Program-made: the position numbers and the translations under genes | Origin: Chloroflexota bacterium | Lineage (GTDB): Bacteria > Chloroflexota > Anaerolineae > CAYNKW01 | NCBI GenBank assembly: GCA_049324835.1 | Contig: JBMOMT010000055.1 | Coordinates: 100,549-164,548, forward strand | DNA: 64,000 nucleotides | Direction of reading: 5' to 3' | Notes under the pieces: generated by a model | Told to the model about the DNA's origin: nothing | Database searches by the model: none | Seen by the model: the letters and a program-made list of their open reading frames with translations, nothing else | Part shown: positions 27,064 to 30,324 of the stretch, in pieces | Layout of the letters: each line of letters opens with the position of its first letter | How positions within the stretch are numbered: position 1 is the first letter of the stretch

Positions 27064-28320
27064 TCACACCCTCCTCAGCGCGTCGATGAGCGCGTCCGTT
27101 TGCTCCGGGCGGCCCACGGTGATCCGGATGTGATCGCGCAGCCCGGGTTTGTCAAAATAGCGCACCAGAATGCCCTCCCGCTCCAGCGCCAGCTTGAGCT
27201 CCCGCGCCTCGCGTCCGATCACCCGGCAGAGCAGGAAATTGGCCCGCGAGGGATAGGGTTGTAGATAGGGCAGCCCGGCCAGCCGCCGCGCCAGCCGGTT
27301 CCGCTCGGCAACGATACGCTCCACCTTGTCGGCCAGCCAGTCGCGATCCTGGAGGGCGGCGAGGGCCGCCGCCGAGGCTGCCACCGAGACGTTGTAGGGC
27401 TGTTTGATCTTCCACAGATGGGGCATCAGCCGGGCCGGAAAGGCGCCGTAGCCAACGCGCAGCCCGGCCAGACCGGCCCATTTGCTAAAGGTGCGCAGCA
27501 CGATGAGATTCTCGTGCCGGGCAACCCGGCCGATGCGGCTGGCCCCTGGCCCGGCAAACTCGATGTAGGCCTCGTCCAGAACGACGATCAGCGGCAGGGT
27601 GAGCAGCCGCTCCAGGTGAGCGCCGGGCAGCCAGCCGCCATCGGGGTTGTTGGGGCTGGTCACAAAGAGAAGCCGGGGCCGGTGCGCCGCGACGGCCTCC
27701 ACCACAGCGTCCAGGTCCAGGGCAAAATCGGGGCGGCGCGGCGCCGAAACGACCCTCGCGCCGGCCAGGGCGGCGGCAAAGGCGTACATACCAAAGGTGG
27801 GCGGGCAGTCGAGCACCGCGTCGCCGGGGCGGAGAAAGAGACGCATCGTCAGGTCGATCAACTCGTCGGCGCCGGCGCTGGCCAGCAGCAGCCCGGCGGG
27901 GAGGCCGGTCAGATCGGCCAGGGCAGCCCGCAGGGCGCGGCTTTCCGGGTCGGGGTAAACGTGGGCGAAGGGCAGAGCGGCCAGGGCGGCCTGCACCCGG
28001 GGCGGCGGGCCGTAGGGGTTCTCGTTGGCGTCCAGCTTGACGATCTCTTCCGGCGAGCGGCCCAGGCGTGCGGCCAGGACGTCGAGGGGGTAGATGGGCT
28101 GGTAGGGCTCCATCGCGGCGATGTCGGGACGCACCAGGTCAACGGAAGGGTCAACGGATGGAACGGAAGGGTCAACGGAAGGGTCAACGGATGGAACGGA
28201 TGGAACGGAAGGGTCAACGGAAGGGTCAACGGAAGGGTCAACGGAAGGGTCAACGGATGGAACGGATGGAACGGAAGGGTCAACGGAAGGGTCAACGGAT
28301 GGAACGGATGATGTTTTCAT
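27064..28320 (-). CDS. hisC: Histidinol-phosphate aminotransferase with ~60-aa repeat-derived N-terminal extension
   Basis: [37 protein letters not shown] overlaps the GxxExxY stop. Confidence 0.95.
28141..28311. repeat. Tandem array A: 16 units (9x AACGGAAGGGTC, 7x AACGGATGG-type) in the hisC 5' end
   Basis: Counted directly from the sequence. Confidence 0.95.
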
Positions 28321-28787
28321 GGTTTTTCCTTTCTTTGGTTCCGTGCAAGCCAGGCGGGTTTCCAGGCGTCACGGCGGCGGCAGTAGGGTTCGCTCTCCTG
28401 GACGCGGCCGGGGGGGAATATACGTTTCTTTTGCAGCCGCTGGCATCCAAAATTGAGCAGCAGGCCCACCTCGCGCCCGGTGGCGGTGAGGTAGGAGATG
28501 ATCTGCTGCTCATGCCTGGCATCGAGTTCCTCCAAAGCCTTGAGTTCGACGACCAGTGCTTCGTCCACCAACACATCGAGACGAAACTCTCCCACAGGTC
28601 GACCGCGAAACTCGGCCATGAACGTCACTTCTTTGGCAGCAGGCAAGCCACGATCGCTGAGGGCGATCATCAATGCCTCGTGGTACACCTTTTCCGGAAA
28701 CCCGGGCCCCAGCTCTGTGTGCACCTCCATCGCCGCGCCGATCACGGCATACGAAAGCTCGTCGTAAATCGTACTGACCTTGCTCAC
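28317..28787 (-). CDS. GxxExxY protein (PD-(D/E)XK_3 nuclease-like family)
   Basis: [20 protein letters not shown] (GxxExxY), RLDVLVD...VVELKA, QIISYL...GLLLNFG; SD GGAGG before the GTG start. Confidence 0.93.
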
Positions 28788-28788
28788 T

Positions 28789-30324
28789 TTACCCTCCTTC
28801 GGTTCCTATGTTATCTGTGCCATTCACCCTATCCGTTTCATCCGCTCTTTCCGTTCTATCCGTTGACACCGTTTCATCCGTTGACACCGTTTCATCCGTT
28901 GACACCGTTCTATCCGTTCTATCCGTTGATTCCGTTCTATCCGTTCTATCCGTTCTATCCGTTGATTCCGTTCTATCCGTTGACACCCTCTTTTCCGCCG
29001 CTGCGGTGTGGGCGGTGAGCGATTCGGCGCGCGCCAGACGGCAGGCCGCCGCAGAGAGCCGGGCGGCGGTACTGGCGTCCAGGGCCACGACGCTGACGAT
29101 CTTGACGAAATCCAGCACGTTGACCGGCGAGGAAAAGCGGGCCGTGCCGCCAGTGGGCATCACGTGGCTCGGCCCGGCGACGTAATCGCCCAGCACCTCG
29201 AACGAGTGCTCGCCCAGAAAAACCCCGCCCGCGCTGCGGATCCGTTCCGCCCAGGCCGCCGGATCGCGGACGGACAGGCAGAGATGCTCCGGGGCAAAAT
29301 CGTCGGCCAGGCGCACGGCGGTCTCAAGATCCGGCGTGAGCACGATGCCGCCCTGCCCGGCCAACGAGGCGGCGGCGATCTCGGCGCGGCTGAGGGTCTC
29401 CAATTGCTGCGCCACCTCGACCTGCACGGCGCCGGCCAGGGCGCGCGACGGCGTGAGCAGGATCGCCGTCGCCAGCACGTCGTGCTCGGCCTGGGCCAGC
29501 AAATCGGCGGCCACCCAGGCGGGATTGGCCGCATCGTCGGCCACCACCACCGTCTCTGTCGGGCCGTACAGCCCGTCGAGCCCCACCAGGCCGTAGACCT
29601 GCCGTTTGGCCAGGGTGGTAAAGAGGCCGCCCGCGCCCACGATCTTGTCCACGCGGGGGACAGTCGTGGTGCCGTAGGCCATAGCGGCCACCGCCTGCGC
29701 GCCGCCCAGGCAAAAGAGCCGGTCCACCCCGGCGATGTGAGCCGCCGCCAGGGTGGCCTCGGGCACGCGCCCGTCGCGGCGGGCGGGCGGCGTGCAGACG
29801 ATCACCTCGTCGACGCCGGCCACCCGCGCCGGGATCACGGTCATGAGCAGCGACGAGGGCAGCGGCGCTGTGCCGCCGGGCACATAGACGCCCACCCGCC
29901 GCAGGGGCACCATCCGCTGGCCCAGCGCGCCCCCCAGCTCGCCGGTGGTCCAAGAATGCAACGGCTGGCGCTGGTGGAAGGCGCGGATGCGGTCGGCGGC
30001 CAGCGTCATCGCTTCGAAAAGATCGGTGGGCAGGTTCTGCTGGGCCACTTGCCAGCTCGCCGGGGGCGCCTCCAGCGCGTCGAGGGTCACGCCGTCCAGA
30101 CGGGCCGTCCAGCGGCGCAAGGCCTCGTCGCCGCGATGGCGCACGTCGGCCAGGATGCTGGCCACGGCCTCCTCCGGCGTCAGGGCCTGGCCAAAGAGGC
30201 GTTGGATGCCGGCCCGCACCGGCTCCGGCACGGGGCCGTCTCCAAAGGCCGGGTCGCGCCGCCGCAAAAGAGTCCGAGCGGCCTCTCGCCAGTCGTCGTG
30301 GATTCTCAAAATCTCAGTGGTCAT
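28789..30324 (-). CDS. hisD: Histidinol dehydrogenase with ~65-aa repeat-derived C-terminal extension
   Basis: GVYVPGG, GPTE, DLLAQAEHD, APEHL, GDYVAGPSHVMPTGGTARF; tail STDRTESTDRTDR... Confidence 0.96.
   Translation of the reverse strand: MTTEILRIHDDWREAARTLLRRRDPAFGDGPVPEPVRAGIQRLFGQALTPEEAVASILADVRHRGDEALRRWTARLDGVTLDALEAPPASWQVAQQNLPTDLFEAMTLAADRIRAFHQRQPLHSWTTGELGGALGQRMVPLRRVGVYVPGGTAPLPSSLLMTVIPARVAGVDEVIVCTPPARRDGRVPEATLAAAHIAGVDRLFCLGGAQAVAAMAYGTTTVPRVDKIVGAGGLFTTLAKRQVYGLVGLDGLYGPTETVVVADDAANPAWVAADLLAQAEHDVLATAILLTPSRALAGAVQVEVAQQLETLSRAEIAAASLAGQGGIVLTPDLETAVRLADDFAPEHLCLSVRDPAAWAERIRSAGGVFLGEHSFEVLGDYVAGPSHVMPTGGTARFSSPVNVLDFVKIVSVVALDASTAARLSAAACRLARAESLTAHTAAAEKRVSTDRTESTDRTDRTDRTESTDRTDRTVSTDETVSTDETVSTDRTERADETDRVNGTDNIGTEGG
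28831..28983. repeat. Tandem array B: 17 x 9-bp units (ATCCGTTCT/ATCCGTTGA/CACCGTTTC variants) in the hisD 3' end, inverted relative to arrays A and C
   Basis: Counted directly; core TCCGTT is the reverse complement of AACGGA. Confidence 0.95.

Follow-up and report, generated by a model that had tools for sequence, protein, structure and literature searches.

Why does a GxxExxY gene, which encodes a protein predicted to adopt a nuclease fold, lie between hisD and hisC of a bacterial histidine operon, enclosed by two tandem-repeat arrays whose cores are reverse complements of each other? We address this question for a 64,000-nt stretch of an Anaerolineae genome (Chloroflexota; G000 below, 5.03 Mb, 62% G+C), hereafter the window, which corresponds to contig C55:100549-164548. 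We conclude, with a probability of roughly 90%, that the gene and the two arrays that serve as its arms form one selfish unit, and comparison of sequences across genomes indicates that this unit is inherited and transferred together and is part of a widespread class of such units. The features on which the argument turns are as follows.

28317-28787, minus strand: GxxExxY (PDDEXK_3) gene, 156 amino acids (aa), identified by the TIGR04256 and PF13366 profiles
28831-28983, minus strand: upstream arm, 17 units of 9 bp, AACGGA-type on the coding strand and TCCGTT-type on the plus strand
28141-28311, minus strand: downstream arm, 16 AACGGA cores at 9/12-bp spacing, TCCGTT-type on the coding strand
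26293-26460, minus strand: third, gene-less array at the 5' end of hisH, 17 cores at 9/12-nt spacing, oriented as the hisC arm

A reading made from this stretch alone (the sequence-only reading) had placed the 156-aa gene 1 nt after the hisD stop and in overlap with the hisC ATG, and coordinates and profile matches agree with it. The hisD stop TAA occupies 28791-28789 and is followed by one base and then by the GTG start of the GxxExxY open reading frame (ORF), with AGGAGG just 5' of the start, while the TGA of the ORF shares ATGA with the hisC ATG (28320). The 17 flanking units of 9 bp and 16 of 9/12 bp were likewise recovered, both on recounting and in a Tandem Repeats Finder (TRF) run that agrees with both arm calls; four upstream units are one-base variants (13 TCCGTT, 3 ACCGTT and 1 TCCGCT, with 9-nt spacing in 16/16 cases). 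The proposal that the arms can base-pair around the gene is supported by RNA folding of 28100-29020 (minus strand), in which the two arrays pair around the ORF with a minimum free energy of -400 kcal/mol against -322.6 +/- 6.6 kcal/mol for 20 shuffles (z = -11.7). Genome-wide, AACGGA and TCCGTT each occur at about 0.09 per kb, and clusters of at least four cores within 15 nt are found at the three his-operon sites only, so that a genome-wide repeat unrelated to the gene was ruled out in G000. A CRISPR (clustered regularly interspaced short palindromic repeats) array was also rejected, as the units measure 9 or 12 nt and unique spacers are absent. Beside the third array there is no GxxExxY gene; the array may be left over from a second insertion, and pairing between it and the hisD arm could loop out GxxExxY, hisC and hisB together.

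The same core recurs at a second GxxExxY locus of this genome. Seven TIGR04256 matches were found in G000. One of them, on contig C11, is 265 aa long and contains two PDDEXK_3 domains; upstream of its gene stand 3.8 copies of an 87-bp hairpin unit containing AACGGATGG and CTATCCGTT...AATCCGTTG, and a partial unit follows the gene. Since the core is so rare in the genome and yet stands at two independent GxxExxY loci, this association is not due to chance.

To what extent does the association hold beyond this genome? A survey was made of 72 GxxExxY loci: six Anaerolineae genomes contributed 27, other phyla (Bacteroidota, Planctomycetota, Verrucomicrobiota, Acidobacteriota and others) contributed 19 that were picked by protein similarity alone, and 26 further loci belong to the nearest subfamily in the class. 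Arrays were called by a motif-free detector (an exact 6-mer in at least three copies at 7-17-nt spacing, no more than 400 nt from the gene), and 459 windows from the same loci served as controls. An array was present in a flank of 56/72 loci against 52/459 controls, an inverted partner on either side in 42/72 against 10/459, and a reverse-complement array across the gene in 35/72 against 0/459; the significance of this enrichment is overstated by the mutual relatedness of the 72 loci. The last of these counts supports the sequence-only reading, which took the gene plus its inverted arrays for a selfish unit and had named a test for such arrays at GxxExxY loci across genomes as a check. The detector also misses some clear cases (e.g., L001 and L053), and left out of the 72 were G009:C36:45444, three weak or fragmentary loci (G011:C11, G009:C120 and G011:C17:13820), a G000:C31 fragment and the G010 remnant (L072) described below. 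An initial flank count restricted to TCCGYT had given 8/27 and was set aside as an understatement, as most of the remaining loci proved, in the motif-free search, to carry a different core.

The cores differ by lineage, with CAGATG in Flavobacteriales, CGCAGAG in Acidobacteriota, and CGCGAAT, CACCAAG, CACAAAG, ACGAAT, AGCGGA, CACGGA, AGCCGA and also AACGGAT within the Anaerolineae class. Two layouts occur, in which the gene lies either between ACGGA-type and TCCGT-type arms or between complete hairpins. Polarity is largely fixed: at least 11 loci carry an ACGRA-type array upstream and a TYCGT-type array downstream, and two between-hairpin loci are reversed. A database search at E <= 1e-5 returned four plasmid records and no phage record. 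Two isolate records were without tandem arrays, one from Treponema with a single 11-bp inverted pair and the other a Fusobacteria plasmid with direct repeats of about 50 nt. In the former, Treponema saccharophilum plasmid pTS1 (L125, 1440-1910), an annotated GxxExxY gene stands beside a Fic family gene and the 11-bp pair reads ACACGGATTCG / CGAATCCGTGT; its core, CACGGAT, is also arrayed in Anaerolineae loci, and the single pair may represent the arms in their smallest form.

If the gene and the arms belong together, protein and repeat should vary together, as the sequence-only reading had expected, and they do so both in motif and in period. In a maximum-likelihood tree of 47 proteins, motif classes track protein clades, and these clades cross host families. 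The modal core spacing is 15-17 nt in 5/5 loci whose protein has a double domain, which together use three motif types, and 8-13 nt in single-domain loci. That the period tracks protein architecture in this way is hard to explain by co-inheritance or stem formation alone, and it is our main ground for supposing that the proteins contact the repeats. Across 201 genomes, TCCGYT arrays were present in 17/33 genomes with the cognate subfamily against 12/168 without it (Fisher p = 1e-8, from a tally made by hand over related and hence non-independent genomes, with thresholds of at least 9 matches and more than twice the control for arrays and at least 140 bits for the protein that were set after the tables had been seen); among the closest relatives within the cognate-subfamily genomes, arrays were present in 8/9.

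The 156-aa ORF matches TIGR04256 at 127.7 bits (cut-off 35) over model positions 1-115 of 116 and PF13366 at 126.2 bits (cut-off 22), and these are the only family profiles that it matches. In an alignment of 47 sequences, G29, E32, Y35, D71, K83 and Y99 show no variation and E81 and Q95 almost none, and the signature E32, D71, E81-x-K83, Q95-x-x-x-Y99 is intact in the ORF; from general knowledge of the fold, we take these to be PD-(D/E)XK catalytic residues. An AlphaFold model of the protein (predicted local distance difference test score 96.2) gave as its best Foldseek match in the Protein Data Bank (PDB) the Cas4 protein SSO0001 (4ic1; E 1.2e-4, template-modelling (TM) score 0.53), followed by lambda exonuclease, RecE, MGME1 and AddAB nuclease domains, all of them DNA nucleases with moderate TM-scores; a PDB sequence search returned chance-level matches only and hence no solved structure by sequence. 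The fold is thus predicted to be PD-(D/E)XK, of the RecB/Cas4-like branch. Cas4 recognises short motifs within single-stranded overhangs, and it has the D...ExK and QxxxY signature in common with the GxxExxY protein. Unlike Cas4, the GxxExxY protein has a core of only about 120 residues, and its gene at the his locus adjoins neither cas genes nor a CRISPR array. A table entry in PMC3424549 lists the function of PDDEXK_3/GxxExxY as unknown.

When did the unit arrive at this junction, and what does it look like elsewhere? Relatives were compared by a DNA search of 40 genomes and by protein-level mapping of ten hisD-hisC junctions. As the sequence-only reading had anticipated, empty junctions exist: at the protein level, 9/10 are without a GxxExxY gene, and 6/10 are short or filled by unrelated sequence. 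Extra junction genes include a GNAT acetyltransferase in G009 (L018) and an S-adenosylmethionine methyltransferase in G001 (L033), and in G021 (L032) the junction holds a 255-aa ORF with a 21-bp-repeat coiled-coil region that matches no Pfam family; the junction looks like an insertion hot spot. In G010 (L072), the junction carries a GxxExxY remnant in which residues 1-44 have 88% identity and an in-frame internal deletion has spared the C-terminal 28 residues; its arms have three and four units, the ATGA overlap with hisC is retained, and hisH is array-free. G010 shares the insertion, with its gene decayed and its arrays short, and the insertion therefore predates the split between G000 and G010. 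Comparison of these junctions indicates that the insertion is absent in the other relatives and that array length changes fast.

Matches to a TCCGYT x 3 pattern numbered 780 in G021, 390 in G009, 94 in G011, 17 in G010 and 2 in G001, against 1-9 for a reversed-pattern control. Typical gene-less copies form hairpins that carry three cores in each arm around a 20-30-nt loop, with folding energies of -63 to -87 kcal/mol, and the sequence ...TCCGTTCAATCCGTTCCCNGAATCCGTTGACAG within them is conserved from family to family. The 7-nt core ATCCGTT is kept across families while spacers and unit lengths vary, which is the pattern expected of a binding site. In view of these dispersed copies, the his arrays are better regarded as members of a repeat family than as a private pair. 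Filled and empty sites can also be compared directly: the site of the G011:C25 cassette measures 736 nt against 145 nt in G057, from the same genus, with flanks 80-87% identical, and that of the G011:C54 cassette measures 1104 nt against 101 nt in G194. At the G057 empty site (L120, G057:C16, ~1440-1470), three ACGCAAT heptamers, a different repeat type, lie just 5' of the downstream gene.

The position of the arms relative to the his genes poses a further question, namely how the operon accommodates them. The operon lies on the minus strand of the window, its genes having been identified by NCBIfam (hisD, hisC, hisB and hisH) and Pfam (hisG and hisA) profiles.

30314-31438, minus strand: hisG (Pfam)
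28789-30324, minus strand: hisD, histidinol dehydrogenase (TIGR00069, 487.6 bits, residues 54-446 of 511)
27064-28320, minus strand: hisC, histidinol-phosphate transaminase (TIGR01141, 322.4 bits, residues 64-417 of 418)
26475-27062, minus strand: hisB, imidazoleglycerol-phosphate dehydratase (NF002116, 289.6 bits, full length; array-free)
25678-26478, minus strand: hisH, glutamine amidotransferase subunit (TIGR01855, 208 bits, residues 63-263 of 266)
24932-25867 (longest ORF), minus strand: hisA (Pfam)

The HisD profile stops at residue 446 of 511 and no in-frame stop codon precedes 28789, so that HisD ends in a low-complexity tail of 65 aa encoded by the upstream arm (VSTDRTESTDRT...). The HisC and HisH profiles begin only at about residues 62-64. 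In hisC, the ATG (28320) is separated from the conserved domain by the downstream arm, which keeps the frame; translation of this arm is likely rather than forced because an in-frame GTG at 28134 directly follows the array. In hisH, the third array supplies an N-terminal extension of about 62 aa, and it must be translated, since no canonical in-frame start occurs between the array and the conserved HisH segment. All 48/48 core spacings of the three his arrays are multiples of three, and spacings of 8, 10, 11 and 13 nt are common in the intergenic arrays of relatives. Whatever the mechanism, the arms are absorbed in frame into coding sequence. The translated arrays, like the hisH array and the motif's membership in a class-wide dispersed repeat family, go beyond what had been seen from the stretch alone.

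These observations can be assembled into a mechanism, of which binding, cleavage, action at the DNA level and mode of spread are all inferred. A selfish cassette would have inserted at the hisD|hisC junction, bringing the nuclease gene with an AACGGA(T) arm upstream and its reverse complement downstream. The GxxExxY protein would recognise the core on its own arms, with about one domain per repeat unit, and would act where the arms form hairpins or cruciforms in DNA. Such action may maintain or spread the repeats and could account for the hundreds of gene-less hairpins in some relatives, compared here with REPINs (hairpin-forming doublets of repetitive extragenic palindromes, REPs) and the single-copy RAYTs (REP-associated tyrosine transposases). 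Within the his operon, the arms would have lengthened by slippage in steps of 9 and 12 nt, with selection keeping the frame, and would now be read as low-complexity tails on HisD and HisH and probably HisC; kept in frame as protein tails, they would leave the operon working. We put at even odds this mechanism as a whole, in which the nuclease would recognise its own arms and work at the DNA level as a RAYT does for REPINs. Considerably more tentative is a generalization that we would sooner doubt than assert, according to which GxxExxY proteins would be the trans-acting nucleases of a hitherto unrecognised class of phylum-spanning mobile hairpin repeats and the PD-(D/E)XK counterpart of the RAYT/REPIN system; each domain would read one unit and a double domain a doubled period, 23S_rRNA_IVP genes would be a second cargo, rRNA intervening sequences, gene-less hairpins and small orphan operon genes would be one element type, and the arms could be absorbed as disordered tails.

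Several results weigh against the cassette and its proposed mechanism. With the motif-free detector, 16/72 loci show no array; 16/33 genomes of the cognate subfamily lack TCCGYT arrays, though many such loci carry another core; and about ten genomes have arrays while the cognate gene is not detectable. Co-variation of motif and protein can come from co-inheritance alone, and three of the five double-domain loci are likely orthologues, which leaves about three independent motif types behind the period argument. Within G000, the GxxExxY paralogues are diverged (34-39% identity over aligned parts), near-identical copies were not seen and the gene bears no sign of recent transposition, while dispersed copies of the repeat are nearly lacking outside the three his arrays and the C11 locus. 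The filled/empty alignment of G011 and G057 shows neither a target-site duplication nor a sharp element end, and the precedent set by intervening sequences operates on RNA and does not need the encoded protein. The finding of arrays without the gene in relatives had been named beforehand as one that would count against the sequence-only reading. Arrays without an adjoining gene are indeed common, and we read them, as with REPINs, as gene-less derivative copies, in which case they are no refutation.

Could the element work on RNA instead? An element like the rRNA intervening sequence, in which the arms pair in the transcript, the host RNase III cuts the stem to free the ORF RNA, and the GxxExxY protein has another role and leaves the arms alone, is the main rival, in our view unlikely, although it has a precedent. 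The predicted fold of the his locus pairs the arms as such an element would require, and a small ORF is enclosed in this manner in the 23S rRNA intervening sequence of Coxiella, as described in PMC4990558. In G000 itself, 4/4 genes of the four-helix-bundle family 23S_rRNA_IVP lie between inverted arrays with a period of 7-9 nt, the array units being CGATTGA / AATCGTA; GCGTATT / ATACGCC; GCAAGTG / CGACTTGC; and GGAGGGGGCA / complement of GGAGGGGGCA.

C3:149567-150034: 23S_rRNA_IVP gene, G000
C17:1117-1691: 23S_rRNA_IVP gene, G000
C62:47596-48150: 23S_rRNA_IVP gene, G000
C24:52250-52950: 23S_rRNA_IVP gene, G000

At the his locus, however, cleavage would separate the hisD mRNA from its stop codon if it fell in the 5' arm and would cost hisC its AUG if it fell in the 3' arm; ribosomes read the former arm and probably also the latter. 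The arms also differ in unit length (9 against 9/12 nt) and in spacers while the core is kept, whereas a stem alone would select for complementarity; the repeat period tracks protein architecture, and the hisH array stands alone in a single orientation. In a comparison of arm folding on the two strands, the sense strand folds better at 30 and the antisense at 20 of 50 loci (Wilcoxon p = 0.18, a weak test in which nine Flavobacteriales loci, all sense, are non-independent); at the his locus, the antisense strand of the arms folds better than the sense strand.

A homing-type element, in which the nuclease would cut gene-less hairpins of its own motif and the gene would be copied into the break with the arms as homology, making the repeats a target rather than replicated cargo, appears still less probable. 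It would fit the polarity of the gene-less hairpins in relatives, which is that of gene-bearing arms (ACGGA arm, loop, TCCGT arm), as well as the loop position of the gene in many loci, the filled and empty sites within one genus and the crossing of host families by protein clades. On the same account, though, one gene per motif type per genome is difficult to reconcile with tens to hundreds of candidate target hairpins, the gene lies between complete hairpins elsewhere (L083, L084 and Flavobacteriales loci), and the G057 empty site is without a hairpin of the cassette motif. That slippage-prone coding microsatellites or generic intergenic palindromes merely lie beside a small gene by chance is barely credible, for while G000 holds many other short tandem arrays (222 regions) and the his arrays are translated in multiples of three, the core is arrayed in G000 only in the his operon and beside the other GxxExxY locus, the inverted layout found in about half of the loci and in none of the controls already contradicts chance neighbours, and this layout recurs in other phyla with different cores.

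The selfish unit that we favour thus invites comparison with known systems, and the likeness to REPINs and RAYTs and to intervening sequences that the sequence-only reading had suggested holds at the level of architecture. As in the REPIN/RAYT system, a short gene is flanked by its own repeats, with one gene copy per repeat type per genome (on the RAYT side, according to PMC3337134). Every gene type has a repeat type of its own, a property that was tested for GxxExxY and found, and dispersed hairpin doublets number from a few to hundreds per genome, on the GxxExxY side in the relatives G021, G009 and G011 though not in G000. Unlike RAYTs, the GxxExxY protein has a PD-(D/E)XK nuclease fold and no HUH/Y1 transposase of the IS200/IS605 TnpA kind; unlike a REPIN, each arm consists of at least three tandem 6-7-nt cores at 8-17-nt spacing rather than one palindrome, and the arms can lie inside reading frames. 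Lacking the HUH/Y1 transposase, the unit is not a member of the REPIN/RAYT system, although its working may be similar.

The rRNA intervening sequences are the other close parallel. In Coxiella, 28-bp terminal inverted repeats close a loop that holds an S23p ORF; three tandem GACAGAT heptamers, variable in number among strains, stand 5' of this ORF, the sequence is excised by RNase III, and it is regarded as a selfish element (PMC4990558). Here too a small ORF stands in a loop of inverted repeats that are predicted to pair into a stem around it, and short tandem repeats adjoin it. Genes of the 23S_rRNA_IVP family have also been noted inside cas operons (PMC3936711), which resembles the placement of the GxxExxY gene in the his operon. 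In contrast to the S23p element, the his cassette lies outside rRNA genes, its ORF encodes a nuclease-fold protein of another family, its arms are long (16-17 units) and translated, and RNase III excision would damage both the hisD and hisC messages. By location, membership among rRNA intervening sequences was rejected, as the element sits between hisD and hisC and an Rfam scan of the window found no family at the gathering score. Since the protein feature of the former system and the location of the latter both fail, the unit is best filed as a variant of such systems.

The ends of Mu and Tn7 carry several transposase-binding sites in inverted orientation, and both ends of the GxxExxY cassette similarly bear repeated, binding-site-like motifs of fixed polarity. 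Unlike Mu and Tn7, the cassette encodes neither a transposase nor an integrase or recombinase domain; a duplication of the target site was not seen, and identical copies are absent within a genome. An insertion sequence or classical transposon was likewise rejected, given no match to a transposase family, no duplication or sharp ends in the G011/G057 comparison, and diverged paralogues. In the literature searched, the gene-plus-arms architecture for GxxExxY is not described and the family is named in passing, with supplements and subscription journals outside the scope of that search.

Other repeats were encountered in G000 during this work. A census of short tandem arrays gave 222 regions. 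Among them are intergenic heptamer arrays and small hairpins made of them (ACGCAAT, GCGTATT, TTTGACG, TTCACGT and others), which we take to resemble cyanobacterial heptamer repeats. Examples are:

C24:34069-34119: heptamer array, G000
C24:45077-45120: heptamer array, G000
C60:81336-81407: heptamer array, G000
C19:8820-8860: heptamer array, G000

At C19:103827-114290, TRF reports a 73-nt period with a constant 37-nt part (GTTTCAATCTCC...GTTCAGAC) that looks like a large CRISPR array. Tandem 18- and 24-bp G+C-rich hairpin units (AGGCCCCCTTTCGGGGGC and similar) occur at several contig ends and in contig interiors, e.g., C59:1-135 and C1:1-114, and probably break assembly.

For annotation, the arrays call for caution, as they may pass for extensions of genes, for microsatellites or for small CRISPR-like arrays. 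For the family, PDDEXK_3/GxxExxY is large and spans many phyla, and the link to a repeat provides a hypothesis of function that can be tested at the bench. The same link connects the ORFs of rRNA intervening sequences, long puzzling, to a wider class of gene-plus-arms elements, and offers a second, mechanistically different case in which a gene present once per genome coexists with a population of short hairpin repeats. In this organism, selfish arms have become translated tails of essential biosynthetic enzymes (HisD, HisH and probably HisC), which is one route by which new disordered protein segments can arise.

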